Positions 7,277-42,743 of a stretch of 51,247 nucleotides of DNA are shown here, in pieces. The stretch lies in contig JAGOTR010000003.1 of assembly GCA_018061685.1 (NCBI GenBank), positions 1-51,247 on the forward strand. The letters run 5' to 3'. The translations under genes and the position numbers were made by a program. Source of the stretch: Candidatus Magasanikiibacteriota bacterium. Lineage in GTDB: Bacteria > Patescibacteriota > Patescibacteriia > Magasanikbacterales > UBA922. The number at the start of each line of letters is the position of its first letter. Position 1 is the first letter of the stretch. The notes beneath the pieces are model-generated. The model was not told the origin of the DNA. It made no database searches and worked only from the letters and a program-made list of their open reading frames with translations.

Positions 7277-7291
7277 GTGGGTGGAGGAGGA

Positions 7292-9987: not shown

Positions 9988-10002
9988 CTGGAGGGTGTAT
10001 TG

Positions 10003-10038: not shown

Positions 10039-10094
10039 CATATACCAAATAATATACCAGCACGTTCGTTCATGCTTTTAGATTTTTTTATACA

Positions 10095-10119
10095 CCTTGC
10101 TTTGCCAAGGCTTTTTTTT
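10095..10119 (+). terminator. Short hairpin plus T8 run just before the next promoter
   Basis: CCTTG-CTTTGC-CAAGG-C-TTTTTTTT. The stem is only 5 bp. Confidence 0.35.
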
Positions 10120-10120
10120 A

Positions 10121-10149
10121 TTGACAAAATATATCTTTTCTTGTATGTA
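10121..10149 (+). promoter_or_regulatory. Candidate promoter of island gene 3 (TTTTTTTTATTGACAAAA module)
   Basis: -35 TTGACA (10121-10126), 17-nt spacer, -10 TATGTA. Confidence 0.4.
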
Positions 10150-10202
10150 TATATCCTTCAGCATTCTTTTGTTTTTTCAAAAAAACCAACGGAGAAGAAT
10201 CC

Positions 10203-10892: not shown

Positions 10893-10904
10893 GTAGGAGT
10901 GCTT

Positions 10905-19512: not shown

Positions 19513-22500
19513 ATGAAAGAAAACGCCACCGCAGTTCGAGTTCCTTCGGGGTACCCAGGCGATACATCTGTATTTGCTATATTTATTTTACTTTTTTTAA
19601 TTGCCATTGTATCGGCTGTAATTTTAAGTGTGCGAGGGTTGCCGGCTGCTTCGGCTCATCCAAATACTCTTGTGGAGTTAGATTATAATATTCAAGGCTC
19701 TGTGCAAGATATGGCAATTTCTGCCGATGGTGAGACGTACTACTTAAGTGGTAATTTTTCTTATGTTGGTGCCACAACCGGGCCTGGTGTGATTGTGAAT
19801 GCTACCACAGGCGCATTAGCGGAATACCATAAACTTGGGTCAGGATCTGTTTCGGCTCGTGTGGTTATCTCTGATGGAAGCGGCGGATGGTATGTGGGTG
19901 GTACGTTCACAACAGTGGGAAATGTTTCTCAAGATAGACTTGTTCATATTACATCTGACGGGTCTATTAATACTTCTTTTGATCCAACATTTGACCAGTT
20001 TGGAAGCATCTATTCATTAGCGCTTGATAGTGCTGCGGGAAGGCTATATGTGGGTGGATCATTTACCGAGGTGAATGGCCAAGCTCGTGATAGTTTGGTT
20101 GCACTGCAAACGGCAAACGGTGATCTTGTTGATGCGTTTCAAATTGATGTAAATAATTTTGGTACGGTGTATGACATGGAAATCAATAGCGGCACCCTCT
20201 ATCTTGCGGGTAATTTTAGTGCATTAGGTGATCTTGCTACACGGTATTCTTACGGAGCTATTGATGTTTCTTCGAGTACCACAAGTACGGTTACGAGTTT
20301 TGGAGATTCTTTTGGATTGGGTTTGTATGGTACTGCCTATGCATTGGAAATCTATGATGGATATGTCTATTTGGGTGGATTTTTTAATGGAATTGGCACG
20401 GGATTTGATATTAATCATGTTGCTCGATTTGATATTGTTGAGGGAGATATTGACTCTAATTGGAATATCGGACCAGACAGTAGTGTGAATGATATTGAAA
20501 TAAGTGATACGGGTATTGTATATGTCGGTGGTGGCTTTACTGGAATTGGCGGTGATAGTAGTCAAGGATATTTAGCTGCCGTAGATGTTGCCACAGAATT
20601 ATCAACGGGGTGGAGTCCGGTATTGAATGGGTCTGTTGAAGATATTCATATTGGAAGTGACACTATTTATTTTGCAGGATCTTTTGATACGGTAAACAGT
20701 TCCACTCGGTATTTAGGGGCGGCTGTGGACGCTGCGACGGGGTTAGTGAATACTGATCTTACCTTTACTCCTAATTCAGGGAGCACAGGATACGCTATTA
20801 TGGAACAATCGGGTGAAGTGTATTTTCTTGGGAGTTTTGATTCTATTGGAGGTGCTCGCTGTCGTGGGTTGGTTGGTATTACCGTTGATACTGGATTACC
20901 CACATCATTTTGTCATTCGTTTACCAATATGGGGTCAACCGCTGGGCCACGTACGTTGTTGTTAGAAGGGAACAAGTTGTATGTTGGAGGGGCTTTTTCG
21001 AGTATTAATGATGGAAGTTCTTCTCCAAATTTTGCTGCTGTATTTAATGTCGATACGAATGAATTATTAGATATTGATTTTGGTTTATCTATTGGTTTTG
21101 GTATGGGGGATCACGGTGTCTATAAATTTCTTATTGATGGTGATGATATCTATATTGGAGGGAAATATACGGCAATAGATCTCTCGAGTGATTATGCTGT
21201 TCTTGGTAAATTTAATAAAACAACAGGAGCGCATGATACTTCGTTGAGTACTGGTTTATTATATCCAAGTTGTTGTGGTGGAAATGACGGAGAAGTACGT
21301 GATATGGTATTAATTGATGATATTTTGTATGTTGGAGGATATTTTACTACTGCTACTGGTAGTGTTTCTCGGTCATATTTAAGTGCTTTTAATACGACGG
21401 ATGGTACATTAACTGCGTGGGCTCCAGAAGCAAACGGGCGGGTAACGCAAATGGAATATAATGGCACGGATACCCTGTATATTTCCGGCGATTTTGGTAC
21501 GATAAATGGTGATACAAGAAATTATTTAGCAGCAGTAGATGTAACAACGGGGTCGACAACTGACTGGGCACCTACTGTGGCAGCTGCACCGAGTGTGTTA
21601 TTAATTGAAGATGGCTATTTGTATGTGGGCGGCGGATTTTCAGAAATAAATGCGACGGCAAGAGAAATGCTCGCTAGCTTTCAATTAAGCGATGAAACAC
21701 TTACGAATTGGAATCCTAATTTAGATGATAGTATTTCAGCGAGTCAATCGAGTGTTCATACATTAAAAAAAGATAATTCTACCGTATTTGTAGGGGGAAA
21801 TTTTCTTACTGCAGGATCAGATAGAATATTTAACGTAGGTAAATTTGGACCACTGAAAGTACAATTTTCGTCCAGTACTTGGACTCAAAGTGAAACAGTG
21901 ACAAATGTGCCATTTACTATTGCTATTTCAAGTGGAAATACGTCATCACTCCCTATTGGTGTGGTGCTGAATGTCACCGGTGGAAGTGCCACCTATGGTG
22001 TCGATTATACCGTTTCCACCGGAACGCTTACTATTGCCGCAGGAGAAACGTCTACATCTTCTGCCATTACCATCGTCAATGATGATACCTTTGAAGCAGA
22101 CGAAACCATTGTACTTACCCTCGTATCAACCGATATTGCTGAATTTGATTTGAATACTACCTATACCTATACCATTGTGAATGATGAGGTTGTAACACCA
22201 GGTGTCATGATTACCGAATCTGATGCAGGAACAGCGGTGACTGAGGGTGGTGCAACCGATAGCTACACCGTGGTATTAAATTCCCAGCCAGATTCTGATG
22301 TGACGGTTGCAATTAGTGAGTCGGCGGATCTCACTATTTCTACGAGTAGTATTGTGTTTACTGCTGCAAACTGGGATACGGAACGCACCGTGACCGTTAC
22401 TGCGGTAAACGATGATATTGATGAAGATGTCGAAATAGTCACCACGACATTTAGTGCCACTTCTCTTGATATGGATTATGAGGCTATTGATATAGACCCA

Positions 22501-27591: not shown

Positions 27592-27737
27592 ACCGCTATT
27601 TGACAAAAATAGAAGTATATTGATAGAGTAGCAACATAATTTTTACTAAACGGAGGCTATGAGAGTATTTTATTCTCACAAAGTAAAAACACGAGACTTA
27701 CCGCCTACTTTTGTTTTATTTTTACCGTAATTAATTT

Positions 27738-27761
27738 ACCACGCTCAGCGTGGTTTTTTTT
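27738..27761 (+). terminator. Intrinsic terminator 9 nt upstream of the Rhs start codon
   Basis: ACCACGC-TCA-GCGTGGT followed by T8. Confidence 0.65.
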
Positions 27762-27769
27762 ATTTTTCT

Positions 27770-30700
27770 ATGCTGTACACTTTGTTTCGGAAAAGCCTGT
27801 TTGTCTTTATGGCCGTAATGACGGGTTTTATGCCTGTGGCACCTGTGCTTGCCACCACGGCTCTTGAAAGCAGCTCGGAGAGTACTGAGGTACAATCGCT
27901 TACCTTCACCCCACAAGAAACAATCCCGCCCATAGAAACCGTGACGCTCGAGCCGAGCGGTTTAGAAGAAGACACTATCGAGATACCCTCTCCTTTGACT
28001 ATTGTGCCTGAAGAGATATTGACACCATCATCGCCTGAAGAGCTGACAATAGTATTAGACATACCAACCAGCACAACACCTGATGTGGATACTCTTGTGC
28101 TGCAAGAACAAACAGAGACTTCTTTTTTTGCGACCATACAAGAAACAGTGAGTGATATTGTAACAACCGTAGAAGAAGCGGTAGAAGAGACTATCGACGA
28201 GGCGGTTCAATTTTTTTCATACGCATGGTATAGCACTGTAAATTCTTTGAGTGGATTACCTCCAGAACTCCCAGAAGAAGCATTCAACGTGGTTGACTCG
28301 GTCACCGATGTGGCCTATTTGCCAGATGGAAAGCATGTATATCGTGAATTTTTGTCTCCTCGATTTTTGTACCATGAGAATGGACAGTGGAAAGCACGCC
28401 CTGCTGATTGGCATGCGTTTTCCGAAATAACAGAATCACAACTAGCACCAAATACTCAAGGCTATTCATACCAAGCCCCAGGAGAAACAGCATTGACTAT
28501 TGGTGCAGGCACGCTCTCTGTCGGCACACAGGATATTTCGCCAGGTCAAGCTAATTTTTCTCAATATGAAAAAAATGGGTATACCGTGAGTGCCTATGAA
28601 GGAGTGTACCCAGGCATTGATGTGATATTTCAAGATTCAAGCGTGCTTCGACAACGAAGTATTGTGATTCACGAAACGGCAGGGCGATCGTTTACCAACG
28701 ATGTGACATTTTGGGAAGAGTATGTGATTCCGGCAGGAACAGTGGTTCGCACGAGTAGTGGTGAAGCCATTAGTGACAGTCGTGATATCACTGGCGATCA
28801 TGTGAGCTTTGAGTTACCAAGTGGATTTGTGTTTGGTGTGAGTGACGCGATTGTGTTTGATGCGTCGGCACAAACACCAGACGAGATCGATATTTCACCG
28901 TCCCTTGAAACCGTTTCTTCTCGTATTGAAATTGATTCGGCAAGCGGTATCGCACGAATTGGTCTTACTATTCCAGCGACGTATTTGCAAGACGCGGTAC
29001 GAAAATATCCGGTGACGATTGATCCGAATTATTATTTTTGTCAAACGGCTACGCCACATTCAGTAGAACAATTGCCAGGTGTGCAATGTTCTGGTGGAAT
29101 TACTGATCTTTATTTACGATATTTGGCGAGTCGAGAAACCGGCACGGGGGATTTATTTTTGGGGTATTATAGTGGAGATCCTGCGGGTCCAGCAACACGC
29201 CAGCCTGTGGTAAAATTTTCTTTGGCAGCTATTCCTGCTGGTCATCAAATAACGAGTGCGTCATTACAACTATATAAGAGTAGAAATGGGCTTGGCAATT
29301 TTAATGGTGATATCAATACTATTGCTCGAAGAATTACGGTCGATTGGAATATCAACAATGTGACCTATCAACTCATCCGCCCAGGATTGGTGAATTTGGG
29401 TCAGAGTGTTGTGCAAACAGGAGTCAACGGGTGGTATGTGTGGTCTGTCACTGCTGCTGCACAAAGTTGGTATGCTACACCGCTTCAAAATTATGGTCTA
29501 TTAGTTGAACCAACTCCTGCTTGGAATGCTGGTGCTGTCCCCGCATGGCCAAATAGGCTTGCTATTTTTAGCTCCTCACGAAATGGTGATACAAATGGAC
29601 CATACTTGTTGGTGCAGACACAAGTGGCACAGCCGGATTTACGAATACAAAATAATGCTATTGATGATACTACTGTCACGCCAGGTCAAGTAGTGAATCT
29701 TTCTCTTGACGTCATAAATAGTGGCAACGCTGCGACAAATCAGCAAGGGAGTGTGTATTATTATTTCAAGAAAGATAGTCGTCTCTATGAGGAACAGTAT
29801 CGTGTTGGGTCGGACACCTATCCGGGACTCGCTGTGAATACATTTTCGTCAGAGACATTTCAATTTACCATTCCTGCAGGGGCAGAACCCGGAACATATT
29901 ATTTGTATTCTTTTGTGGATCCTACGGGATTATTTGTTGAAAGTAATGAAAATAATAACACGGCGTTTCATACGATTACTGTGTCAAGTCCCAATTTACC
30001 CAACTTGGTGCCTGAACAAAATGCCGTCGATGACAACACCGTATTTACCGGTCAACAAGTGACGGCAAGTACACGAGTATTTAATCGTGGTGCTGCGGGT
30101 GCAGGGAATACGTCTGTCTTGCGATATTATTTATCTACCAATCAAACATACGACGCAAATGATACCTATCTCAATCAACAAGACACTGTTGATAATTTAG
30201 CTGTAGGTGCAAGTAATTTTGAGTCGGCACTTGTGACTATTCCAAATGTTGCGGCAGGAACATATTACATTTTGTTCCGTGCGGATTATGATAATCAAAT
30301 TCCAGAATCAAATGAAAATGATAATGTAGGGTTTGTGCAAGTAACCGTCTCTATCCCTATTGATCCGCTTGAGCCAAATAATACGTCAGGGACAGCAACA
30401 AATTTGGGTGCACTGGTAAATTACAATAATAATCAAACATTGCTCACTGCTGGCGATCAAGATTGGTTTGTATTTCGTTATAATAATCAAAATTATTATG
30501 TGAAAGTTGCTGGGCTTAATGCAAACACTGCTGGTGATTACAATGTTTCTTTTTCTTTGGTAGGGAATAGACTCACTGCTGAGACGCTTCGACGAACAGG
30601 TGGCACAGACACGACCCTTACTCTCTATGGTCCTGATTTATTACAGTTAGACTACAATGACGATGTTGATAATACACTCTTCTCTCGTATTGTGTACGAT

Positions 30701-33700
30701 TTACCACTCGGCGGATATTGTGGTGGACAGTGCGGTGGTGGTGGCAATCCTCCACCGAGCGAAAATTTACCTGACCAAGATAATGATACATTTGCCGACG
30801 TAGAAGAAGCCTATGGTGGAACGCCAATTCAAAACCCAAATCAAAGGGCAAGTCTCTATAACATTGGGAATCCCGTGCTCTACTCAAAAGTTGCCGACAA
30901 AACAGCAAACAATTATGGCGCCGACCCAGTCAACTTGCGTACTGGTTCATTTGAATTTATACAACAAGATTTTGTACTTTCTGGCCGAGGTGTCCCAATT
31001 GAATTTACGCGTACCTACAACAGTTTAGTAACAGACAAAGATTCTCGCCTTGGGAATGGCTGGGATTTTTCACAAAACTTTTTTTACTACCAAGATCCTG
31101 ACACGGGCAATGTGCAAATATATTTTGGTGGGTCACGTGTCTCATCATTTAGTTCAAACGATGGGGGACAAACATTTGTTGCCGAAAAAGGAAACTTCGA
31201 TACATTGTTTTGGGAGAATAATGCAATTGTCTACCGCACACTCGAAGGCATTCGGTATGAATTTACCAATCGCTTAACGAGTCAATTAGGTATTTTGGAA
31301 CGCATTCGAGATACCAATGGCAATGTGACCGAATTTACCTACATGGTTCGCCGTGATGTGCCACTTATTACACAAATTCGTGATGCATCTGGTCGTGTGG
31401 TTGAATTTACGTATGGCGCAGAAGATGCTGCAAACTGGCAACGTATTGAGTCACTTCGCGAACGAGCCAACCAAAATCAAGCAGAACAACGTGTAATTCT
31501 TTTTACATACAATGGTTCTGGCAATTTAATTCGAGTGCGTGACAACAAATCATTTGAAGGCGTTACTGAAACGAGTGACAGACAATATGCGTATGATGCC
31601 AATAATCGATTAACACAATATACCGATCCACGGGGAACTATTTTATACAACGAATACGATGCAAATGGGCGAGTCATTCGTCAACGAGAATATAATCCAC
31701 GTGTTGACGCTGCTGGCAGTTCTCGCTTGGTATGGGAATTATCATACGCCGGCGGAAGAGGCGACGCACCGGGCAGTGTTGCCTGTACGACCGTTACCTA
31801 TCACCGAAGTGCTGCGAGTAGCTATACCGAAGTCAGTTGTTTTAATGCCGACGGCTTAAAAGTATTTTTTCAAGATGGAGCAGGCGCAAGTGAAAAGTGG
31901 ACATACGACAATAATGGTATGGCTCAAACATACCAAGATAAAAATGGAAATACTACCAGCTATACTCATGACGCTCGTCGTCGTTTGACGCTCGAGGTGT
32001 TGCCAGAAACGGCATGGTACACCGAAGTGGCCTATGCGTATGAAAATAATTTTAATCGCCTTGTTCGTGCAACAGAGCGATATCGCGCTGCCAACGCTCC
32101 CGAAGATCCACTCCAACTCCGTGAAAAACAATTTTTGTATGACAATGAGCATGGGAATCTTACCGAAGCACGAGATTATTTGGGTCGAGCAGAATTTTTT
32201 GCCTACGACCAATATGGTAATGTGATTCAGTTTACCAACAAAAATGGACATATAACATCCTACGTCTACGACGCACAAGGCAACTATCGCATTCGAGAGT
32301 CCATACAAGCACAAGTGTTAGATGGCGAGGATATGAATGTGGTGAAGAGCTATCAATATGATCCGTATGGCAATGTGACGGTGTATACCGACCCTGCCGG
32401 TGGATTATGGCAATATGCGTATGACACCCGAAATAATCTTCGTCGCACCGTTGATCCCTTGGGTGCTGTTCGTCAGTACCGCTATGACGCCGAAGACAAC
32501 AAAATACAAGAAATAAACGAGCGTGGCTTTATTACCAATTATGTGTACGATCAAGATATTGAAGCATCTCTTTTGTCTATTGAACAAGTCGGCGCAAATG
32601 GTGACGCATCGCGCATCACTCGTTTTGAACGAGATTATTTAGGTACACTGGTCAGAGAAATTGATCCACGTGGCAACGCAACCGTGTATACACATAACGG
32701 AGCCAATTTGTTGACGCAAAAACAAATGCCACAAGATACGATTGTGTATGCATATGATGGTGTGGGCAATGTAATCCGCGAAACAAATAGTTTGGGTCAA
32801 CAAGTTGCGTACCAATATGATGCCCGCAATAAACGAACACAATCACAAACGCAATCAGACGCTGGGTTAGTGACGGTGACAACGCAATATGATGCATTTT
32901 CTCGACCTATCTTGGTGACAGATCCAAATAATAGCGTTCATGGCTACACCTATGACGCTATGGATCGAGTGGTAAGTGAGGTGGACGCATTGGGTGGTGT
33001 GACAAGTTATACCTATGACGCCATTGGTAATAAACGAAGTGTGTTATTGCCTCGTGCACAAGCAGACCTTGCACTTCGTAACGCACAAGGAAATTCTGTG
33101 ACGTATGAATATGACAGTCTTCGTCGATTAGTTCGAGAAACCAATGCAGACAATAAACAAACGTTGTATTTTTACGATACCAGAGGAAATTTGATTCGTA
33201 CAATTGACAGACAAAATGCAAATGGGACAGACAATACGCATGTAACAACGTACACGTATGACGCGGTAAACAGAAATATAACCAAAACCATGCCCGAAGG
33301 CGGGGTGACACAAATGGAATATGACGGAGTAGGCAACATGACACGCATGACCGACGCCATGAATCGTGCAACGGTGTATGGCTACGACACGTTTAATGCA
33401 CAAAAAACAGTGACCGATGCCGCAGGAAATCAAACCGCATTTACCTTCGACACGGCTGGCAATGTCACACGAACAACGTATCCAGATAATACGAGTGTGT
33501 CTGTGGTGTATGACACTGCGAACAGACCAATACAGGTGACCGATGCCGACAATAATACCGAAGTCACTACGTATGATTCTTCAAGCAATGTTGTTGCACT
33601 TCAAAATAGACGGGGAGAAATAACAACGTTTGTCTATGATGCATCAAATCGCCTTATTCGTGAAACCAATCCACAAAATACTGCGACACTCTATACCTAT

Positions 33701-36016
33701 GATGCAGGTGGAAATAAACTGTCTCAAAGTGTAGACGGAGAAACCACGAGCTTTGCCTACGATGCATTGAACCGTGTCACGACACAAACCAATCCAGGCA
33801 ATAGTGTGGAATCATACACTTATGATCGAGAAGGGCATGTGCTCTCGTTTACCGATGCAAAAAATCAAACGACCAGTTATGCCTATGATGCACTGGGGAG
33901 AATGACAGTGAAAACTCCCGCATCAAACGATTGGGTGCAATACCAATACAATAATTGGGGTATGCCAACGCAAATTGCAGAGAACGATACATTCATCCGA
34001 AACTTTGTGTACAACAGAGAAAATAATGTGACAGAGGAATCGCATATATTTACTACACAAGGTGGTCCAGTAGTAAAACGAATACAACGCACCTACAATG
34101 CAGCACAAGAAGTCACATCACTCATCGATCCCGCCAACCGTGCCTTTGATTATGTATACAATAATCGAGGCTTACTGTCTCGTGTGAATTATGGTGCCAC
34201 CGCTTTGGCACAATACACCTACACCCCATTTGGCAACGTTGCAGCCACTACATTTGGTAATGGTGTGCGTACCACCTATGGCTATGATGCACTGCACCGC
34301 ATGGATGACATGCATGTACAAACTGCAGGCAACCAAACACTCTTACGCCAGGCATATAGCTATGACGCTGGGGGAAACAGACTTGAATTACAAGAAACAT
34401 TTGTGAATGAAAACGGAGACGCTGCCAACCGTACTGTTCGGTATGCCTACGATGATATTGATCAACTCACGAGTGTGAACTACACCGACCGTGGTGCTGG
34501 AAACGATCTGACGTTTGCGTATGACGCAAAAGGAAATAGAACAACTGCTACCGCACCATTTGGGAGCGTAAATTATGGCTACAATAATGCTGGGCAATTA
34601 ACCGGTGTGAATCAAAATAGCAGAATGTCGGTTGCGTCGAGCTATGACCCAAATGGCAGTCTGACCCAAGAAGTATATCGCCGCCAAGGCAGAGATGTGC
34701 AACAAGTGGCATACACCTGGGACGCTGAAAATCGTTTGGCCGGTATTACCTATACCGACATGTCTCGACCAAATTATTTGCCAGACCTTGCGCAAAATGA
34801 ATTAAGTTTTGTGTACGACAACAGTGGCAATAGAATTAAAAAACAAGCCAATGATGAGGCCACATATTATGTAAACACAGGCTTGACTGTGTTGAGTGAA
34901 TTAAACGGCCAAACACTTGCCGTGGATAAAACATTGATCCCAGGTGTTGGTACTGTTGCCGAACTTGAGGGAGACGGAACACTTTCGTATGTGCATAGTG
35001 ATGTATTAGGTTCCACCGTGCTTATGACCAATGCACAAGGCGCTGTAACAGCGGAGTATGACTATGATGTGTTTGGGTCGCTCTTGGGTATGAAGGGCTC
35101 AAGTAGTACGGGGTACTTGTTTACTGGCCAAGAATTTGATCCTGAGTCAAATTTGTATTATTACAATGCACGGTATTACAGCCCAACATTAGGACGATTT
35201 ATTTCTCGTGATGTATACTTGGGCGAGGCAGGGGATTCGCTGAGTCGGAATCGGTATGTGTATGTGAAGAATAATCCTATTAAGTTTGTGGATCCTAGTG
35301 GAAATGTTTGGGAAACTCCTTGGGATATCGGTAATATAATATATGATCTGGGAAAAGGCGTAAAAAATACTCTTGAAGTTGCGTATCACGGTGCTGGTAT
35401 TGTGATAAATTATGTTGGGGAAAATGATGAAGAAGATATTGCCTATCATAACGAGAAGGCGGCTCAAGATTTGAAACAATTAGGGAATGCTGGTGTTGAT
35501 CTAGCATTTGATTTTGGAGCAACGCTTGTTCCTTTTCTTCCTGCGGGGTCAACAAAAGCTGTTCGGTATGCTGATGACGTAGTCGATGCTGGGAAAGTAA
35601 TAAAAAATAGTAAACCAGTTGAAGGCATATATCAATTTACAACTAAAGATGGATTAGATTATGTGGGTCAATCACAAGATATTACGAAGAGACTGCAACA
35701 ACACATGAAATCTGGAAAATTGGATGCCAATGATTTATTACAGGTCAAAGTAAAAGAAGTTCCTGGAGGAAAAACACAAAGAGAAATTGCCGAACAGATG
35801 AGAATTAATGAGTTAGGTGGTATTGATAAATTGTCGAATAAAGTAAATCCAATTGGCCCGAATAGACAACAGTTATTACCAAAATCAACAGGCGGACCAA
35901 ATATAGTACCGGTTGTGATCCCTCTTCCATTCAATAAACCAGAGGAACTAAAAAAATCAGGTCAACAGTCTACAGAAAGAAAAACGAGAGCTTTGATAAA
36001 ACAAGATAATAAGTAA
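27770..36016 (+). CDS. Rhs/YD-repeat polymorphic toxin (WapA-like, Sec signal peptide) with a C-terminal GIY-YIG nuclease module
   Basis: 2748 aa. Signal peptide MLYTLFRKSLFVFMAVMTGFMPVAPVLATT. Two CARDB-like units (PDLRIQNNAIDDTTVTPGQVVNLSLDVINSGN; PNLVPEQNAVDDNTVFTGQQVTASTRVFNRG). A PPC-like unit (EPNNTSGTATNLG...GDQDWFVF). DPVNLRTGSFEF shell start. Dozens of YD repeats (Y.YDA.GN...). Rhs core end YYYNARYYSPTLGRFISRD...NRYVYVKNNPIKFVDPSGN. Confidence 0.92.
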   Translation: MLYTLFRKSLFVFMAVMTGFMPVAPVLATTALESSSESTEVQSLTFTPQETIPPIETVTLEPSGLEEDTIEIPSPLTIVPEEILTPSSPEELTIVLDIPTSTTPDVDTLVLQEQTETSFFATIQETVSDIVTTVEEAVEETIDEAVQFFSYAWYSTVNSLSGLPPELPEEAFNVVDSVTDVAYLPDGKHVYREFLSPRFLYHENGQWKARPADWHAFSEITESQLAPNTQGYSYQAPGETALTIGAGTLSVGTQDISPGQANFSQYEKNGYTVSAYEGVYPGIDVIFQDSSVLRQRSIVIHETAGRSFTNDVTFWEEYVIPAGTVVRTSSGEAISDSRDITGDHVSFELPSGFVFGVSDAIVFDASAQTPDEIDISPSLETVSSRIEIDSASGIARIGLTIPATYLQDAVRKYPVTIDPNYYFCQTATPHSVEQLPGVQCSGGITDLYLRYLASRETGTGDLFLGYYSGDPAGPATRQPVVKFSLAAIPAGHQITSASLQLYKSRNGLGNFNGDINTIARRITVDWNINNVTYQLIRPGLVNLGQSVVQTGVNGWYVWSVTAAAQSWYATPLQNYGLLVEPTPAWNAGAVPAWPNRLAIFSSSRNGDTNGPYLLVQTQVAQPDLRIQNNAIDDTTVTPGQVVNLSLDVINSGNAATNQQGSVYYYFKKDSRLYEEQYRVGSDTYPGLAVNTFSSETFQFTIPAGAEPGTYYLYSFVDPTGLFVESNENNNTAFHTITVSSPNLPNLVPEQNAVDDNTVFTGQQVTASTRVFNRGAAGAGNTSVLRYYLSTNQTYDANDTYLNQQDTVDNLAVGASNFESALVTIPNVAAGTYYILFRADYDNQIPESNENDNVGFVQVTVSIPIDPLEPNNTSGTATNLGALVNYNNNQTLLTAGDQDWFVFRYNNQNYYVKVAGLNANTAGDYNVSFSLVGNRLTAETLRRTGGTDTTLTLYGPDLLQLDYNDDVDNTLFSRIVYDLPLGGYCGGQCGGGGNPPPSENLPDQDNDTFADVEEAYGGTPIQNPNQRASLYNIGNPVLYSKVADKTANNYGADPVNLRTGSFEFIQQDFVLSGRGVPIEFTRTYNSLVTDKDSRLGNGWDFSQNFFYYQDPDTGNVQIYFGGSRVSSFSSNDGGQTFVAEKGNFDTLFWENNAIVYRTLEGIRYEFTNRLTSQLGILERIRDTNGNVTEFTYMVRRDVPLITQIRDASGRVVEFTYGAEDAANWQRIESLRERANQNQAEQRVILFTYNGSGNLIRVRDNKSFEGVTETSDRQYAYDANNRLTQYTDPRGTILYNEYDANGRVIRQREYNPRVDAAGSSRLVWELSYAGGRGDAPGSVACTTVTYHRSAASSYTEVSCFNADGLKVFFQDGAGASEKWTYDNNGMAQTYQDKNGNTTSYTHDARRRLTLEVLPETAWYTEVAYAYENNFNRLVRATERYRAANAPEDPLQLREKQFLYDNEHGNLTEARDYLGRAEFFAYDQYGNVIQFTNKNGHITSYVYDAQGNYRIRESIQAQVLDGEDMNVVKSYQYDPYGNVTVYTDPAGGLWQYAYDTRNNLRRTVDPLGAVRQYRYDAEDNKIQEINERGFITNYVYDQDIEASLLSIEQVGANGDASRITRFERDYLGTLVREIDPRGNATVYTHNGANLLTQKQMPQDTIVYAYDGVGNVIRETNSLGQQVAYQYDARNKRTQSQTQSDAGLVTVTTQYDAFSRPILVTDPNNSVHGYTYDAMDRVVSEVDALGGVTSYTYDAIGNKRSVLLPRAQADLALRNAQGNSVTYEYDSLRRLVRETNADNKQTLYFYDTRGNLIRTIDRQNANGTDNTHVTTYTYDAVNRNITKTMPEGGVTQMEYDGVGNMTRMTDAMNRATVYGYDTFNAQKTVTDAAGNQTAFTFDTAGNVTRTTYPDNTSVSVVYDTANRPIQVTDADNNTEVTTYDSSSNVVALQNRRGEITTFVYDASNRLIRETNPQNTATLYTYDAGGNKLSQSVDGETTSFAYDALNRVTTQTNPGNSVESYTYDREGHVLSFTDAKNQTTSYAYDALGRMTVKTPASNDWVQYQYNNWGMPTQIAENDTFIRNFVYNRENNVTEESHIFTTQGGPVVKRIQRTYNAAQEVTSLIDPANRAFDYVYNNRGLLSRVNYGATALAQYTYTPFGNVAATTFGNGVRTTYGYDALHRMDDMHVQTAGNQTLLRQAYSYDAGGNRLELQETFVNENGDAANRTVRYAYDDIDQLTSVNYTDRGAGNDLTFAYDAKGNRTTATAPFGSVNYGYNNAGQLTGVNQNSRMSVASSYDPNGSLTQEVYRRQGRDVQQVAYTWDAENRLAGITYTDMSRPNYLPDLAQNELSFVYDNSGNRIKKQANDEATYYVNTGLTVLSELNGQTLAVDKTLIPGVGTVAELEGDGTLSYVHSDVLGSTVLMTNAQGAVTAEYDYDVFGSLLGMKGSSSTGYLFTGQEFDPESNLYYYNARYYSPTLGRFISRDVYLGEAGDSLSRNRYVYVKNNPIKFVDPSGNVWETPWDIGNIIYDLGKGVKNTLEVAYHGAGIVINYVGENDEEDIAYHNEKAAQDLKQLGNAGVDLAFDFGATLVPFLPAGSTKAVRYADDVVDAGKVIKNSKPVEGIYQFTTKDGLDYVGQSQDITKRLQQHMKSGKLDANDLLQVKVKEVPGGKTQREIAEQMRINELGGIDKLSNKVNPIGPNRQQLLPKSTGGPNIVPVVIPLPFNKPEELKKSGQQSTERKTRALIKQDNK
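30919..35305 (+). other. YD-repeat shell and RHS-repeat-associated core (domain within the Rhs CDS)
   Basis: Runs from ADPVNLRTGSF to the PxxxxDPSGN boundary motif (GAT CCT AGT GGA AAT at 35291-35305). Confidence 0.85.
35306..36013 (+). other. Variable C-terminal toxin module (236 aa): linker plus GIY-YIG nuclease domain
   Basis: Directly after DPSGN. GIYQFTTKDGLDYVGQSQDITKRLQQH...KTQREIAEQMRINE...SNKVN carries the GIY, YVG, Arg, Glu and Asn landmarks of GIY-YIG nucleases (GIY begins at 35624). Visibly more AT-rich than the shell. Confidence 0.75.
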
Positions 36017-36880
36017 ATGATTATTATGAAGAATAACTTTATTATTGAGCCAGGCCTATACAAAGATCAAATCATTTTGACCGGTTCTTGGACAAAAGAT
36101 GTTGAGGCATATATTCGTCAGCATGGAATTACTGAATTATGTCTCAATCATGCAAAAGGATGGACGGGGGATTCAATTGATTTCCTTGAAACGATAGCAG
36201 ATCAAATAGAGGTTTTTACCCTTTTGGATTTTCACATAAAAGATATTACACCGATTCATTTACTCCGCAATCTTAAGAGTATTGATATTCAAACTTATTG
36301 CAATACAAAACTCGATTTTTCCAATTTTCCCAAATTGAAAAAATGCGGGTTTTATTGGAGAAAAAATGTTGTATTAGGTGTGCTCCCCTCTATTGAAGAT
36401 TTGTTTATATACAAATATAAACATGAGGATCTTTCGTTGCTATATGGACTAAAAAATTTACGACGTTTGCGAATTAAATTTTCATCTCAATTAGATTCGT
36501 TGAAGGGTATTAATTCGTTAGCACACTTAGAAGTTTTGGAATTAGCTCTTTGTTCTAAATTGGAGTCTCTTGATGAGGTATGGAAATTAGGTTCGTTGAA
36601 AGAACTCGCCCTTGATACATGTAAAAAAGTTTCAAATATCAAAGGGATTGAATCATTACACCAGCTTCGCAAATTAGCGTTAAATAATTGTGGAAAAATT
36701 GATAGCTTGAAACCGATTGCTACATTAAGAAATCTGGAGGAAGTCTATTTTTATGAGTCTACGAATGTTGAAGATGGAGATATTAATTTTTTGCTCGACT
36801 TACCTCTGTTAAAAAAAATAGCCTATCAAGATAGAAAACATTATTCATTAAAAAGGGATGTCTTTGAGAAAAAATTATAA
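36017..36880 (+). CDS. Leucine-rich-repeat protein, candidate cognate immunity protein
   Basis: The ATG abuts the Rhs stop (TAA ATG). 287 aa, no signal peptide. About 7 LRRs of 22-23 aa (LKNLRRLRIKFSSQLDSLKGINSLAHLEVLELALCSKLESLDEVWKLGSLKELALDTCKKVSNIKGIESLHQLRKLALNNCGKIDSLKPIATLRNLEEVYF). Confidence 0.7.
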   Translation: MIIMKNNFIIEPGLYKDQIILTGSWTKDVEAYIRQHGITELCLNHAKGWTGDSIDFLETIADQIEVFTLLDFHIKDITPIHLLRNLKSIDIQTYCNTKLDFSNFPKLKKCGFYWRKNVVLGVLPSIEDLFIYKYKHEDLSLLYGLKNLRRLRIKFSSQLDSLKGINSLAHLEVLELALCSKLESLDEVWKLGSLKELALDTCKKVSNIKGIESLHQLRKLALNNCGKIDSLKPIATLRNLEEVYFYESTNVEDGDINFLLDLPLLKKIAYQDRKHYSLKRDVFEKKL

Positions 36881-36897
36881 TTTTTCTTTAGAGCTGT

Positions 36898-37125
36898 ATG
36901 TATATAGAAGCAATAATTATCATGATACTATTCGCCATTATTCCTTTTTCAAAAAAGATAATGTCTATCATAGATAAACCTTTTCAGATTATGTGGTATT
37001 TATCACCAACGAACGCCCCCCTTGAAAGAATGTTTGGTAAACATATTCGAATGTGGGTTTTGAAAGGGATATTTTGGGGAGTAAGTTTCATTATATTATT
37101 GTTTGTATTAGGTATTTTAAGATGA
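36898..37125 (+). CDS. Small two-helix membrane protein (75 aa), unknown
   Basis: MYIEAIIIMILFAIIPF...GIFWGVSFIILLFVLGIL. Lies in a very AT-rich stretch continuous with the toxin/immunity cassette. Confidence 0.45.
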   Translation: MYIEAIIIMILFAIIPFSKKIMSIIDKPFQIMWYLSPTNAPLERMFGKHIRMWVLKGIFWGVSFIILLFVLGILR

Positions 37126-37138
37126 TCTTTCGTTTTGT

Positions 37139-37387
37139 ATGAAATCAATAGTTATCTTAGTCCTCATCACTATGCTGTTTATACTAATTGCACAATCAAA
37201 CAAAATTATTCATTCTCTGAAAAAGATTTTTGGAATGATATTGGGTCTCTTTGCATTTAGTGCAAGTGTTACTCTCAAAGAAGTCATGGATGAAAAATCT
37301 ACTACCAAAATAATGAAAGCAGTGTTGTATACATTTGCAGTATTATCGGCGATAATTGCGATTATACTTATTATGACAGGGGTATAA
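37139..37387 (+). CDS. Small three-helix membrane protein (82 aa), unknown
   Basis: MKSIVILVLITMLFILIA...GMILGLFAFSASV...AVLYTFAVLSAIIAIILIMTG. Confidence 0.45.
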   Translation: MKSIVILVLITMLFILIAQSNKIIHSLKKIFGMILGLFAFSASVTLKEVMDEKSTTKIMKAVLYTFAVLSAIIAIILIMTGV

Positions 37388-37428
37388 CGTACACATTATT
37401 TATCAATTTTTTAAAAATAATAAGTAGT

Positions 37429-38928
37429 ATGAAATCTCTCAATCGTTTTAGTCTCATCATTTGTGCAGTTCTCTTCGTTCTTGCACCGAATATAACGCAC
37501 GCCGCTCCCGAAACAGAACGCCTGGTCAAAACCGCCAACGACCACCGCGTTTTTTTGGTAAAAAATAATCGACGCATTCACATTCCAAATCCATCTGTCT
37601 TTGAAGCCGGCGGGTACTTGTGGACAGATTTACGCGTTATTTCTGAAAAAGACATGAATGCAATTCGGAATACCGCCCTAATCAAATCCCCAGTCGATGC
37701 AAAAGTATATTTAATTAAAGACGGGCAAAAAGCATGGATTCCCGACGAAGAAACATTTTTAGGTGCCGGTCTTTCATGGAACGACATTGTGGTTATTCGT
37801 CAAGAACAAGTCAATTTTTACCCAGAAATTGATTTTCACCAAAAAGATGCACAAGAGATTGCCGTTGTTCGCCCATTGCAAGGCACCACCAGTCAAAAAG
37901 TTGAGGCATATAAAAATAGTTTGGTTCGACCTGTCGAATTTGCATCTATTCAAACATTGGGAAGCCTTCGCCCTGAATCGGTGTACACCGAACCGTATGC
38001 AATAAACAATGTCGGGCAAGTCGTGGGAATGTCTTTGGTGACCGGTAAAAATGCGAGTCATCCTTTTTTGTGGGAGAACGGCGTGTTGAAAGATATTGGA
38101 ACACTTCGAGGCGGAGATCTTGGCGGTGGCATGGCGCTTGATATTAATGACGCAGGAACTATTGTTGGATTTTCTGCTGTTTCCGCATCATCTGATAACA
38201 CCTATCTGTTCTATTATGATGCAACGGGCATTCATTCACTCGCCATGGGTGGTGGTGGCCCTATTCGGCTCAATAGTCGAGGCGATATATCATTTATTAA
38301 AACAGTGAACGATGCCACTATTCAAGGTGGCGTGATTCGTGATGGTAAGAGAACATTGTATAACGAGGAGGTTGCTGGTGTCACACCAGAAGGAATCGTC
38401 GTAAAAGAAATAGCGAAGACCCCATCAACGTATGACATTGTCCTTTCTTCAGGAAATATCAATACGCCTATTGTGTTTGACCCGAGTGCTCCGAATCATC
38501 GGGTACAAGGTGTGAATGATAAAGGCGATATTATTGGCTACGCCGAAACACCAGGAACTGCCGTCCACGGATTTTTATATACCAATGGCACATTTGTTGA
38601 TTTGGGTGAAGGAGTGAAGCCTATAGCACTCAATAATATTCAAGATGTTTTGGTCGAAAAAGTGCTCACATTTCCATCTGGTGGACGTGCTATGGGGCCT
38701 GCGTTGTGGAGAAACGGAGAATTTTTTCCGCTTCTTGATTTGTTGCCACCTGGTACACCTTGGGCAGATATTACCGCAACCGATATTAATGATCTCGGAC
38801 AAATTGTTGGGTTTGGAAGTACGAGTGAGCTTGAAGGAAAGCAAGGATTTATTATGACACTCCCAGAGGTTGTGCGTGCCAAAGTGATTTCGCCAGAACC
38901 CCTAAGCGATGAACAAGAAGATATTTAA
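37429..38928 (+). CDS. Secreted HAF-repeat-type protein with two N-terminal 40-aa repeats
   Basis: Signal peptide MKSLNRFSLIICAVLFVLAPNITHA. Repeats AINNVGQVVGMS...HPFLWENGVLKDIGTL...ALDINDAGTIVGFS...GVNDKGDIIGYA...HGFLYTNGTFVDLG...TDINDLGQIVGFG match the extracellular HAF-repeat pattern. Confidence 0.7.
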   Translation: MKSLNRFSLIICAVLFVLAPNITHAAPETERLVKTANDHRVFLVKNNRRIHIPNPSVFEAGGYLWTDLRVISEKDMNAIRNTALIKSPVDAKVYLIKDGQKAWIPDEETFLGAGLSWNDIVVIRQEQVNFYPEIDFHQKDAQEIAVVRPLQGTTSQKVEAYKNSLVRPVEFASIQTLGSLRPESVYTEPYAINNVGQVVGMSLVTGKNASHPFLWENGVLKDIGTLRGGDLGGGMALDINDAGTIVGFSAVSASSDNTYLFYYDATGIHSLAMGGGGPIRLNSRGDISFIKTVNDATIQGGVIRDGKRTLYNEEVAGVTPEGIVVKEIAKTPSTYDIVLSSGNINTPIVFDPSAPNHRVQGVNDKGDIIGYAETPGTAVHGFLYTNGTFVDLGEGVKPIALNNIQDVLVEKVLTFPSGGRAMGPALWRNGEFFPLLDLLPPGTPWADITATDINDLGQIVGFGSTSELEGKQGFIMTLPEVVRAKVISPEPLSDEQEDI

Positions 38929-38955
38929 CCATTTATTTATTTCCGTTGAATCCAT

Positions 38956-41772
38956 ATGACATACCGCATCATGATTTCAATCGTTTTGTGTCTGGGCTGG
39001 GCCGTGCCTGCACTTGCGCGAGAAGCATATTTTACGCCGGCCTTGGGCGATGTATTGCCTGCCGTTGTCGGCGACGAACGAGCCTACACCACCGACGATG
39101 GGGGCATAGCACTTTCTGCCTATAGCGGAGATGTGGTGCCCAATTTTCCATTATTTGTTGCAGAGAGTGTCGTTGCCTCATCACCCTTGATTGCCGATGT
39201 ACAAGGTGATGGTACGTTTGAAATTATTTTTCTTGCTCGAAGTGAACAAAATCAATATGCACTTTATGGCTATACTGGTGCAGGCGTCTCTGTTGCAACT
39301 GTGAATCTTGGCGGCACGGACGTGTTTGCCGACCTTGTGGCAGTAGAACGTGTTGCGGGTGGAAGTGACATATTTGTTATGGACGATAGTGGCAGCATAA
39401 AAAGAATTCGTTTTTCAAATAATCAATTTGTGGTTGCCAATATCGCAAACATTGGTGGACCGGGTGCACTTGCCGTAAGCACAAGTGGCGACGAATTGTA
39501 TATATCGATCGCAGAAGAAAATCGTGTGCTTGTGTATGTACGAAATGGCGATGGGTGGCAACAAGGCAGAGTCTTGAATACCAATTCACCAGTGATATAC
39601 CCACTCCTCGACGGTGGCGACGGACATGTGTATGGCGTGAATCGAGATGGCAATATTGTCGCACTTTCTACTCAAAATGGGGCTATGAAAGCAGGGTTCC
39701 CTGTTGATGCGTCACTCCCATTGGGTCAACTTACTCGTGCCGAACTTTCGGACGCTCATGCAGGAAAAGAACTGGTAGCCCCACTTCAAAACGGAAAACA
39801 ACTTGTGTTGACCACGAGCGGTGTGGTGGTAGAAGAAGCAGGGGAACAGTCGTTTGTGTCTCAATCATTGTCTGTCCAAGATCCGTCAAGCACCGGATTG
39901 TTCCGTGGACTTCGCTCTCGCTTGGGGAGTATTTTGACTCAAGCACAAGAAGTGATTATTTCAGCACTCACTCGTATTCGTATTGCCTTTCAAGAACGTT
40001 CTGCTGAAATAGCACTCACCTCTGGTGGCCAGCCATATGAAAGTGGAGCCACTATTGATATGGGCATGGTGCAGGTGGGGCAAACGAGTGATATTGTGCT
40101 CACAATTCAAAATACGGCCGATGGAGTATTACATCTTTCTGGCAATCCACGAGTGACCCTCGCGGGTGATGCAGCGTTTTCTGTATCGCAACAACCAATT
40201 GCTTTTGTTCAACCGGGTGCACAAACGCAGGCAACGATTCGGTTTACGCCAGCACAAGCCGGTGCTGTTCAAGCTGTTGTAACCATACGAAATAACGATG
40301 AAAATGAAGATCCGTTTACCTTGACGATTTCTGCACAAGGCGTGAATAATTTGGTGGTGGATGGTTTTATGGAACAAGCTGGTGTGGCCAGTTGGCCATC
40401 GTATGGAACGCCACCTATAAAAGAAAAAAGTAATGTGGCATATCAAGGTGCACAAAGTTTACATATCAATACCATAGGAAGTCGTGGGGGAGTATATCAA
40501 TCAAATATTCCGGTTGAAGCAGGTGAGTGGTATCGATATTCGTTTTATTACAAACACAATGGACAAGTAAGTACATTTTTAAGTATTAGTTTGCCAAATT
40601 CAGATTATGAAAATGCGCCAGCGCAATTACCTCCAACAGGCGATACGTGGGTGTATTATGAACGTGTATTTCAAATTCCAAATAATTATGTGAGTAAATT
40701 CCGACCGGTTATTGGAACGGTGAATGCCGATCTGTATATTGATAGCATGATCATTGAGCCTATTGCTGCACCACTGTTAGTCCAGGATGGCGATATGCAA
40801 GCAAATCATATGAATTATTGGGTACGGTATGGGCTTCCTGATGTATTAGAAAAGCGAGAAGATGGTGGGCAAAATCAGTATGTATTTGTACAAAAATTAA
40901 ATGGAAATGGGGGTGTTCAGCAAACCAATATTTTGGTTGAACCAGATCAAACCTACATTCTCAGATTCCGATACCAATTTGAACAAGGAAAACAACTACG
41001 TGCCATGTTGAATTTACGTTCTATCAATGCAAATGGTGATTTTGAAGAATTTTATAGAAATATTCCAAAAACACAAAACGGAGAATGGTCATGGTATGAG
41101 CGACAATTTACTATTCCAGAAAATACGGTCGATGCATTATCACTACGTATCACGGGCATGTCAGAATCAGGGCAACTTATGAGATTTTCTCTTGATGATG
41201 TGTCAATCACACGGGTGGAAGATCCACTATTAGTTCGAGATGGAGACATGGAATTGGTTGATCTTGCTGCCTGGGGAGACTATGGGGCTCTTCTTGAAAA
41301 GAGAAAAGATGCGGATGCTCATGCTGGGGCACAGTCACTCTATATTGCCAGAGACACAAACGTTGCAAATAATTTGGGTGTACAACAAATCATTCCTGTT
41401 GAAGCCGGACAACAATATCGATTCAGATTTTGGTATAAAACAAATACCGGTGTGATTCCTATTCTTGGAACAGCAAATACAGATTATGAAAATACTGCGA
41501 CCTACCTGTATCCAAGTAACAATTGGAGACAATACGAACGTACGTTTACGGCACCGCAAAACGTGGATCAATTCCGTATGCTCTTTGTTGCTGATAGATT
41601 CTATTACGATATTCCAAGCGTAGGAGCCTATAGTGTGTACTTTGTTGATGCTCAAGGCGTATCGTTTATAGACGGTGTCCGTCGCGATGGCCTTGGGCCA
41701 AATGATATTGTGGTACAGCAACCAGCCAACCCACATCTTTGGATTGATGATGTGACATTGGAACGCTTGTAA
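38956..41772 (+). CDS. Secreted 938-aa protein: FG-GAP/VCBS-like N-terminal region, an ASH/choice-of-anchor-D-like Ig domain and four CBM4/9-like jelly-roll repeats
   Basis: Signal peptide MTYRIMISIVLCLGWAVPALA. SSPLIADVQGDGTFEIIF is FG-GAP-like. IDMGMVQVGQTSDIVLTIQNTADGVLHLSG...ATIRFTPAQAGAVQAVVTIRNND is ASH-like. Four modules begin LVVDGFMEQ, LLVQDGDMQ, LLVRDGDME etc., each with GAQSL...VEAG.(Y/W)YR(F/Y)(S/R)F(Y/W)YK. Confidence 0.8.
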   Translation: MTYRIMISIVLCLGWAVPALAREAYFTPALGDVLPAVVGDERAYTTDDGGIALSAYSGDVVPNFPLFVAESVVASSPLIADVQGDGTFEIIFLARSEQNQYALYGYTGAGVSVATVNLGGTDVFADLVAVERVAGGSDIFVMDDSGSIKRIRFSNNQFVVANIANIGGPGALAVSTSGDELYISIAEENRVLVYVRNGDGWQQGRVLNTNSPVIYPLLDGGDGHVYGVNRDGNIVALSTQNGAMKAGFPVDASLPLGQLTRAELSDAHAGKELVAPLQNGKQLVLTTSGVVVEEAGEQSFVSQSLSVQDPSSTGLFRGLRSRLGSILTQAQEVIISALTRIRIAFQERSAEIALTSGGQPYESGATIDMGMVQVGQTSDIVLTIQNTADGVLHLSGNPRVTLAGDAAFSVSQQPIAFVQPGAQTQATIRFTPAQAGAVQAVVTIRNNDENEDPFTLTISAQGVNNLVVDGFMEQAGVASWPSYGTPPIKEKSNVAYQGAQSLHINTIGSRGGVYQSNIPVEAGEWYRYSFYYKHNGQVSTFLSISLPNSDYENAPAQLPPTGDTWVYYERVFQIPNNYVSKFRPVIGTVNADLYIDSMIIEPIAAPLLVQDGDMQANHMNYWVRYGLPDVLEKREDGGQNQYVFVQKLNGNGGVQQTNILVEPDQTYILRFRYQFEQGKQLRAMLNLRSINANGDFEEFYRNIPKTQNGEWSWYERQFTIPENTVDALSLRITGMSESGQLMRFSLDDVSITRVEDPLLVRDGDMELVDLAAWGDYGALLEKRKDADAHAGAQSLYIARDTNVANNLGVQQIIPVEAGQQYRFRFWYKTNTGVIPILGTANTDYENTATYLYPSNNWRQYERTFTAPQNVDQFRMLFVADRFYYDIPSVGAYSVYFVDAQGVSFIDGVRRDGLGPNDIVVQQPANPHLWIDDVTLERL

Positions 41773-42695: not shown

Positions 42696-42743
42696 TACTA
42701 GCCATTTTTTTCTTTTGCTATGTTTCACTCGCCGTTTCGGAAT

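Follow-up and report, generated by a model that had tools for sequence, protein, structure and literature searches.

A predicted Rhs toxin with a GIY-YIG nuclease tip and an adjoining leucine-rich repeat immunity candidate in a probable Patescibacteria genome

The window analyzed here, a 51,247-nucleotide stretch of contig JAGOTR010000003.1, carries on its forward strand a long open reading frame (ORF) whose product has the domain layout of an Rhs polymorphic toxin, followed directly by an ORF for a leucine-rich repeat (LRR) protein (Table 1). An earlier note on this DNA, made from the letters alone, had described the first product as an Rhs toxin with a YD-repeat shell that ends in the canonical core and continues into a 236-aa tail, and domain searches bear out both points. 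The shell opens with a DUF6531 plug (residues 1052-1101, Pfam E 3.3e-11) and contains 21 stretches matching RHS_repeat (PF05593, E 2.5e-103) and 12 matching YD_repeat (TIGR01643). It closes with the Rhs-associated core, whose end reads ...NRYVYVKNNPIKFVDPSGN (residues 2508-2512, motif PIKFVDPSGN), and the tail takes up residues 2513-2748. This Rhs-type domain content is far beyond chance, as seen from the extreme E-values and from the adjacency of the C-terminal tip domain to an LRR gene, which recurs in dozens of unrelated genomes. The toxin stop codon (TAA, 36014-36016) is followed in the same frame by an ATG at 36017, so that the LRR ORF does adjoin the toxin as the earlier note had said, but a second ATG at 36026 gives a 284-aa product that matches the database gene call and is a better fit to the N-termini of homologues. 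With two candidate starts, the space between the genes is either 0 or 9 nt.

Table 1. Features of the toxin and LRR genes, with positions in the window
Feature	Position	Strand	Basis or remark
Rhs toxin ORF	27770..36016	+	2748 aa, ATG start; coordinates exact
Signal-peptide-like N-terminus, residues 1-28 (MLYTLFRKSLFVFMAVMTGFMPVAPVLA then TT)	27770..27853	+	Translation, by eye
N-terminal region, predicted extracellular, residues 29-1051	27854..30922	+	NCBIfam DNRLRE_dom E 2e-17; Pfam CARDB E 3.2e-18, two stretches
Rhs/YD-repeat shell, residues 1052-2512, from DUF6531 plug to Rhs-associated core	30923..35305	+	Pfam/NCBIfam
Rhs-associated core, predicted aspartyl autoprotease	35063..35305	+	TIGR03696 at residues 2432-2511, 77.5 bits against a cut-off of 32.5
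Pre-toxin linker, residues 2513-2611	35306..35602	+	WETPWD helix motif, hydrophobic LVPFLPAGSTK segment
Predicted minimal GIY-YIG (URI-fold) nuclease toxin domain, residues 2612-2706	35603..35887	+	Pfam, conserved columns, AlphaFold2, Foldseek
42-aa basic C-terminal extension (TGGPNIVPVV...KQDNK) and stop codon	35888..36016	+	Predicted local distance difference test (pLDDT) 51-62; isoelectric point 10
LRR protein, predicted cognate immunity protein	36017..36880	+	287 aa; Pfam LRR_4, LRR_EndoS, LRR_14

Judged by eye, the N-terminus of the toxin begins with a basic n-region (R7, K8), continues through a hydrophobic core of 19 residues and reaches a V-L-A motif of the cleavage type directly ahead of TT. 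The thousand or so residues between it and the shell comprise an acidic Thr/Pro/Glu-rich linker, a DNRLRE domain, two CARDB stretches, an unassigned beta-rich segment and a Gly/Cys-rich linker. The DNRLRE domain, which is absent from the earlier description, was placed by NCBIfam at residues 455-615, and Pfam found CARDB over approximately residues 621-860, with the best match at 621-731; residues 1-460 gave no Pfam match. Of the "CARDB/PPC-like" surface domains proposed previously, the CARDB part stands. A PPC-like domain was considered and rejected, as residues 851-1050, searched in isolation, had no Pfam match even at E<=1.

Comparison with the 20 nearest related Rhs shells, which are 45-54% identical to that of the window, locates the boundary of the tail. 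All are alike through YYYNARYYxPxxGRFISRD...(27 residues)...DP[ST]Gx and then diverge totally, which is the classical boundary of a polymorphic toxin; among these 20, a GIY-YIG tip is found only in loci L219 and L220. The Asp of GRFISRD and the Asp of DPSGN, 27 residues apart, are conserved in all 20 related shells. Autoproteolysis of RhsA depends on a PxxxxDPxGL motif and a catalytic Asp dyad (PMC8765631), and by analogy the two conserved residues are predicted to match that dyad, with cleavage 4 residues past the second Asp, after residue 2512. The final residue of the motif, N in the window, is variable in this shell lineage of the candidate phyla radiation (CPR). The linker that follows the predicted cleavage site has no Pfam match, but motifs resembling its own occur upstream of the tip in relatives, and PT-TG (PF14449) is matched by 3 of 130 members of the tip family.

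The last 130 or so residues of the tail had been proposed to carry GIY-YIG landmarks. This assignment is supported by profile and structure searches, although the domain itself covers only about 90 aa and the remaining 42 residues form a low-confidence extension, which is predicted to be disordered and is missing from most relatives (13 aligned relatives end no more than a few residues from ...NPIGPxRxxLL). When the tail or tip is searched by itself, Pfam GIY-YIG (PF01541) scores 24.6-25.4 bits, against a gathering cut-off of 22.6. Relatives of the tip numbered 12 by a search with the tail and 397 by a profile search, and 130 were aligned; 113 of these 130 match PF01541 at E<=0.01. All six landmark residues (Y10, Y20, R30, H34, E61 and N79) are present in the window's tip, and alignments that include the 130 relatives show G8-I-Y10, Y20-x-G22-Q-S, R30, H34, R60-E61, E64 and N79 to be invariant or nearly so. 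We take the six landmarks to correspond to Y6, Y17, R27, H31, E75 and N90 of I-TevI; the alignment to I-TevI by way of the family profile spans the N-terminal half of the tip directly. A PDB search with the single tail sequence found nothing; the catalytic domain of I-TevI (E 0.002) came up with the family profile only.

An AlphaFold2 model of the tip, built on the 130-sequence alignment, has a pLDDT of 93-97 over residues 11-80 and a beta-beta-alpha-alpha-beta-alpha topology, with strands at 8-13, 19-24 and 49-52 and helices at 27-37, 42-47 and 57-70. Foldseek matched this model in the PDB to I-TevI (1ln0, probability 1.00, TM-score 0.62 on the target, 91 columns) and to the GIY-YIG domain of UvrC (1yd6, probability 0.99), with nothing else above a probability of 0.2. 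Sequence and model together indicate that the tip is a minimal GIY-YIG nuclease of about 90 aa, without a DNA-binding domain, and nuclease activity is predicted for it. A possible relationship to HNH nucleases was also considered. Positions 36-82 of the tip profile resemble the HNH region of colicin E7 (E 0.0045; REIAEQxRINELGG against FELHHEKPISQNGG), but this match was rejected as probably due to chance, since the family has no His-Asn-His motif and Foldseek returned no HNH structure.

The tip belongs to a large family. An exhaustive profile search of 1.84 billion representatives recovered 1376 clusters (50% identity) at E<=1e-3, and in nearly all of the best 150 representatives the domain forms the very C-terminus of the protein, which can be as long as 4735 aa. 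In relatives it is found on Rhs and HINT-type polymorphic toxins, and with this placement it behaves as a terminal toxin module. An annotated plasmid-borne example was sought, and the sole match was to a Ralstonia megaplasmid that is without annotation across the stretch concerned. In L220, from a Patescibacteria group metagenome-assembled genome (MAG), the tip (at about 4480-4740) reads YCGRAC in place of YVGQS and KQSIAEQ in place of TREIAEQ, with the loss of R60-E61, and the LRR gene still adjoins it. This may be a decaying toxin whose immunity gene has been kept.

The second gene encodes, as had been proposed, an LRR protein with no hydrophobic N-terminus or signal peptide. It contains about ten LxxLxL units with a period of 20-26 aa, rather than the seven or so repeats first counted, and a conserved FYESTN[IV]xDGD motif near its C-terminus. 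LRR_4 and LRR_EndoS score above their Pfam cut-offs, sequence matches in the PDB are to the LRR regions of Roq1 and internalin B, and the family has a mean column identity of 41%. Its association with the tip was evaluated in 80 tip loci from species-representative genomes, in which LRR genes were found with a hidden Markov model (HMM) of the window's LRR family. These loci span Proteobacteria, Bacteroidota, Planctomycetota, Acidobacteriota, Actinomycetota, Cyanobacteria, Bacillota and CPR bacteria. An LRR-family gene adjoins the tip in 49 of the 80, on the same strand in 45 and on the opposite strand in four. Most of the same-strand genes overlap the tip gene or begin a few nucleotides from its stop, and none lies more than about 170 nt away; the four opposite-strand genes stand beyond a DUF5076 gene. 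Divergent LRR proteins are found beside the tip in four further loci, all of them actinobacterial.

The association also holds when approached from the LRR gene and from the shell. A tip lies directly upstream in 28 of 48 LRR loci, while the other 20 LRR genes are orphans, several of them at contig ends. As a control for the delivery shell, 80 Rhs-shell loci were fetched with residues 2200-2512 of the window's shell. Only three of these carry the tip (L219, L220 and, as an orphan module, L229), and the LRR gene is adjacent in all three; the 77 tip-less loci yielded a single LRR-family match, in a non-adjacent position (Fisher p=4.9e-5). In L007 the closest LRR homologue (41% identity) comes behind an orphan tip of 142 aa, and a different Rhs-TNT toxin lies downstream; in L006 an orphan homologue lies within an immunity-like gene array downstream of a DUF6443 toxin. 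In a neighbor-joining tree the window's tip falls in a clade whose members are all paired with LRR genes, where its closest neighbors are the tips of Xenorhabdus innexi and a Pirellulales MAG. A search of the window with the family HMMs found no tip, LRR, DUF5076 or RraB-like gene besides the pair itself. Thus, the LRR gene goes with the tip rather than with the shell that delivers it and is also met as an orphan, which is the signature of a cognate immunity gene, and the co-variation with toxin type on which the earlier note had made its proposal depend is evident. From these patterns we infer that the LRR protein is the cognate immunity protein, which would neutralize the toxin physically.

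The remaining tip loci show that other proteins can occupy this position. Among loci with no LRR-family partner, 19 carry a protein of about 90 aa assigned to DUF5076 (PF16826) and nine carry an RraB-like protein of about 120 aa (PF06877); a tenth RraB-like example, L001, was reached through the contig of a homologue. Partner type (LRR, DUF5076 or RraB-like) sorts largely by tip subclade in the neighbor-joining tree. More than ten loci have tip, LRR and DUF5076 genes in tandem, and in four the tip and a DUF5076 gene are followed by an LRR gene on the opposite strand. The loci with split partners fall within L008-L087 and L168-L213 (e.g., L168, L170, L171, L183, L200 and L208; L033, L047, L048 and L073). 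This arrangement suggests that DUF5076 is an immunity family. We found no earlier description of the three-way split among LRR, DUF5076 and RraB-like partners.

Comparison of the window's system with described polymorphic toxins shows both likenesses and disparities. In 2012, Zhang, de Souza, Anantharaman, Iyer and Aravind (PMC3482391) defined the URI/GIY-YIG toxins carried by RHS proteins as Tox-URI1 and Tox-URI2, and PAAR-RhsA-GIY-YIG candidates have been annotated in Salmonella (PMC11669294). The window's toxin is like Tox-URI1 in having a GIY-YIG fold at the C-terminus of an RHS protein, a signature of Y, YxG, R, E and N, and an immunity gene directly downstream. Unlike Tox-URI1, for which the listed immunity families are Imm14, Imm26, Imm44 and Imm51, it is paired with an LRR protein, a class (Imm-LRR) named in that study only beside toxins of the type V secretion system (T5SS) (PMC3482391), and CPR hosts lie outside the phyletic list of Tox-URI1. 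The Tox-URI1 signature, compared as published and not by profile, is approximate in the tip, which has R60-E61...E64 and no literal [RK]xxE. The Pfam model for Tox-URI2 did not match the window's toxin. Export also differs, the Tox-URI1 and Salmonella examples being assigned to type II (T2SS), T5SS, type VI (T6SS) or TcdB/TcaC routes, while the window's toxin has a signal-peptide-like N-terminus.

A parallel to the pairing itself has been described, in a 2026 preprint, in the T6SS vgrG6 clusters of Stenotrophomonas, where the LRR protein "314" is predicted with AlphaFold3 to block the C6 "UvrC-like endonuclease" C-termini of Rhs proteins (bioRxiv 10.64898/2026.07.13.738213). There, as in the tip family studied here, a GIY-YIG/UvrC-like Rhs tip is paired with an LRR protein and orphan LRR genes occur in poly-immunity clusters, a likeness judged by description only. 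The Stenotrophomonas toxins are PAAR-Rhs proteins delivered by the T6SS of a diderm, whereas the window's toxin has a signal peptide-like N-terminus, no PAAR domain and a probable monoderm CPR cell as its producer.

Rhs toxins of the WapA type that are exported by Sec are established in Firmicutes, among them WapA-CT1 of Streptococcus suis (PMC12704120). Like WapA of Bacillus subtilis and of S. suis, the window's toxin combines an N-terminus resembling a Sec signal peptide, a predicted surface region, a shell of Rhs/YD repeats, a polymorphic toxin that would be freed by autocleavage and a downstream immunity gene, with no specialized secretion machine. In contrast, WapA uses cell-wall-binding repeats as its anchor, and the S. 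suis protein works with a sortase, SrtB, and with a SecF-like partner. Pfam and NCBIfam found no domain of the cell-wall-binding or LPXTG type in the window's toxin, DNRLRE and CARDB being present instead, and no sortase or SecF-like partner was detected in the window. The characterized WapA toxins of B. subtilis are tRNases, not GIY-YIG DNases. The earlier note had seen no T6SS or type VII secretion system (T7SS) gene, and this was upheld by a Pfam scan of 22 ORFs or segments, which covers the window only and leaves room for a secretion system elsewhere in the genome. PAAR, prePAAR, VgrG, Eag and LXG/WXG markers are likewise lacking in the toxin and in the neighboring ORFs scanned. Without the wall-anchoring features of WapA and without T6SS or T7SS markers, the protein can be called WapA-like in logic but not a member of the WapA family.

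The shell itself can be compared with Pseudomonas protegens RhsA, a T6SS effector of known structure (PMC8765631), and with the TcB/TcC cocoon, with which it shares a YD cocoon, an N-terminal DUF6531 plug-type domain and a predicted C-terminal aspartyl autoprotease with a PxxxxDPxG motif and two Asp, so that the toxin is expected to be encapsulated. It differs from RhsA in the absence of PAAR, prePAAR, VgrG and an Eag partner and in the details of the cleavage motif. By its domain content and modeled fold, the window's system is an Rhs polymorphic toxin with a tip of the GIY-YIG fold and a predicted antidote of the Imm-LRR class. A literature search on Rhs toxins in Patescibacteria found nothing specific.

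The lineage of the window and the composition of the cassette bear on how this system came to be where it is. GC content declines from 0.44 for the shell through 0.40 (linker), 0.33 (tip) and 0.32 (LRR gene) to 0.29 over the 550 nt that follow, and the gene after them is back at 0.44. This low-GC cassette, at 35306-37428, comprises about 2.1 kb of tail, LRR gene and flanking DNA and was probably acquired horizontally. It also holds two small predicted membrane ORFs (36898-37125 and 37139-37387), which were not counted as parts of the system, as the other loci fetched contain no equivalent of either. Among named matches to the window's GroEL, those from Ca. Buchananbacteria are the best (66-69%), and several better matches, at 74-82%, come from MAGs that bear the suspect labels "uncultured Gammaproteobacteria" or "uncultured Bdellovibrionales". 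Magasanikbacteria, Peregrinibacteria, Peribacteria or "Patescibacteria group" MAGs supply nearly all of the closest Rhs shells, together with a few "uncultured Gammaproteobacteria" MAGs. The latter label is attached to "binchicken" third-party annotation MAGs, which supply relatives of both GroEL and some of the shells (L088, L090, L093, L216, L229 and others), and it is probably wrong, since all other close relatives are CPR lineages. These relationships are consistent with the guess, made in the earlier note, of an ultrasmall and probably episymbiotic cell.

On these homologies the locus is likely to be an Rhs cassette of the polymorphic toxin/immunity kind, carried by a genome that is probably from Patescibacteria. 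In the proposed scheme, the 2748-aa precursor would be exported by Sec through its N-terminal signal peptide, and the N-terminal region of about 1000 aa, with its DNRLRE and CARDB domains, would be retained on or near the cell surface. The YD-repeat shell would fold as a cocoon around the C-terminal tail, and the Rhs-associated core, acting as an aspartyl autoprotease through the Asp residues of GRFISRD and DPSGN, would cut after residue 2512 to free the 236-aa fragment. Once inside a target cell, the fragment would cleave DNA non-specifically, in a Mg2+-dependent manner, by means of its GIY-YIG domain of about 90 aa. The signal-less LRR protein would bind and block the nuclease in the cytoplasm of producer and sibling cells. 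The tail and LRR gene would have been gained together, probably by C-terminal displacement, from a pool of tip/immunity pairs common to bacterial phyla.

Several observations weigh against parts of this scheme. The PF01541 match is confined to the N-terminal half of the Pfam model (positions 3-38 out of 78); on the full-length protein it scores 20.6 bits, below the cut-off of 22.6; and the Foldseek E-values are weak (5e-3 for I-TevI and 3e-2 for UvrC) despite probabilities of 1.00 and 0.99. The cleavage motif of the window terminates in N and not L, and its two Asp are separated by 27 residues, compared with 22 in RhsA. With respect to the antidote, about one third of the tip family pairs with DUF5076 or RraB-like proteins, so the LRR protein is not a universal partner, and adjacency is evidence of co-inheritance and not of physical neutralization. 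The co-fold of tip and LRR protein is uninformative, as it was computed as an artificial fusion through the 42-aa extension with an unpaired alignment and reached a predicted TM-score (pTM) of only 0.38; in this model the middle of the LRR protein has a pLDDT below 50, probably owing to misalignment of the LRR rows by MAFFT.

In one alternative, the same cassette might be aimed at the bacterium that hosts the episymbiont, as the earlier note had speculated, or the toxin might be released in soluble form, instead of serving as a contact-dependent weapon against rival relatives, with the LRR protein protecting only the producer during synthesis. A Patescibacteria-like lineage would fit such a role, as many Patescibacteria spend their lives attached to hosts; the adhesin-like domains of the large N-terminal region could serve for attachment, and the window has no T6SS or T7SS gene. 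We nevertheless regard it as unlikely. Toxin-less orphan LRR genes are common (20 of the 48 LRR loci), which is the pattern expected if cells must resist toxins from neighbors of their own kind, and the tip/LRR module is also found in free-living Proteobacteria, Bacteroidota, Planctomycetota and Actinomycetota. The sequence, moreover, indicates no particular target.

It is considerably harder to sustain the view that the LRR protein, instead of being an antidote, has an accessory role, for example as a chaperone or adaptor that helps to load or deliver the tip, or as a target binder. LRR scaffolds do have many binding roles, at some loci an LRR and a DUF5076 gene stand in tandem and one of the two might not be an immunity gene, and the poor co-fold model (pTM 0.38) gave no interface. 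However, the LRR protein has no signal peptide and would stay in the cytoplasm while the toxin is exported, its gene follows the tip and not the shell that delivers it, and one orphan copy is embedded in an immunity-like gene array. In sister subclades the same position is filled by small proteins of the kind typical of immunity, DUF5076 or RraB-like, and LRR immunity proteins are a recognized class (PMC3482391). These patterns make an accessory role very improbable. A tip that is catalytically dead, acts on a substrate other than DNA (e.g., RNA) or is the remnant of a GIY-YIG homing endonuclease would accord with the Pfam match being confined to the N-terminal half and with the weak colicin E7 HNH resemblance of the profile's C-terminal half (E 0.0045), but is scarcely credible given that all six landmarks (Y, Y, R, H, E and N) are kept in the window and near-invariant across 130 relatives, that structural matches are to GIY-YIG proteins only and never to HNH, that the tip stands in frame after the Rhs cleavage motif and is always C-terminal on polymorphic toxins, and that, unlike homing endonucleases, it lacks a DNA-binding domain and is not set in an intron or intein. 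The data favor none of these three alternatives over a polymorphic toxin/immunity cassette.

Other features of the window provide the setting of the toxin gene. Upstream of it lies a promoter-like site at 27600-27629 (TTGACA, 18 nt, then TAGAGT with TG) and a terminator-like hairpin at 27738-27764 (ACCACGCTCAGCGTGGT followed by a T-run), which ends 6 nt ahead of the toxin ATG and might either terminate the upstream gene or act as a regulatory leader. In the interval upstream of the ATG (27600-27769), nothing resembling a Shine-Dalgarno sequence was seen. The products of neighboring genes are GroEL, a release factor, Sua5, KsgA, YidC, glycosyltransferases and several large proteins of the cell surface. 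One of the latter, at 19513-24468 on the forward strand and upstream of prfA, sua5 and ksgA, is 1651 aa long and has beta-propeller (Rax2, DUF5122) and Calx-beta domains; with the genes at 37429-41772 (DUF3466, CBM_4_9) it places the toxin among cell-surface genes. A second giant ORF on the forward strand (42702-51245) runs off the end of the window and encodes at least 2848 aa with a signal-peptide-like N-terminus (MKTKIRLTFLLCCLFVQVFGVFFVATPASA); three segments of 841-1000 aa from it gave no significant Pfam match.

Two further observations concern parts of the window away from the toxin. A class A bacterial RNase P RNA is encoded on the reverse strand at 2170-2910 (110.8 bits, gathering score 100), and as the match covers 741 nt against a model of 367 positions, one or more large insertions in the RNA gene are implied. 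A GC-rich island lies at 7277-10900, with a GC content of 0.55 at 8001-10000 against 0.43 window-wide; it contains one ORF of 612 aa and a pair of about 228 aa each, all three without a Pfam match, and many overlapping ORFs on both strands.

In conclusion, the type of toxin/immunity cassette found here is widespread in other phyla, and the current picture of polymorphic toxins is unchanged by it. What is mildly new is the CPR context, the size and phyletic breadth of the tip/LRR pairing, and the three-way split of partners. The analysis provides two families that can be reused in annotation, a minimal GIY-YIG toxin family of about 90 aa (1376 clusters) and an LRR antidote family of about 285 aa marked by FYESTNxxDGD, along with the DUF5076 and RraB-like partners of sister subclades, which suggest a function for DUF5076. 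More speculatively, and with considerable doubt, the CPR Rhs lineage, with its signal-peptide-like N-terminus, DNRLRE/CARDB region of about 1000 aa and variant DP[ST]Gx motif, and with no secretion machine in view, might represent a distinct, machine-independent means for ultrasmall episymbionts to deliver nucleases into their host bacterium or rival epibionts; separately, the tip family might have recruited three unrelated antidote folds, and tandem LRR-DUF5076 arrays may cross-protect.

The system suggests that Patescibacteria, despite their small genomes, keep full-size Rhs weapons and exchange the tips of these weapons with a toxin/immunity pool shared with other phyla. Such exchange would bear on competition among epibionts or on the exploitation of their hosts.

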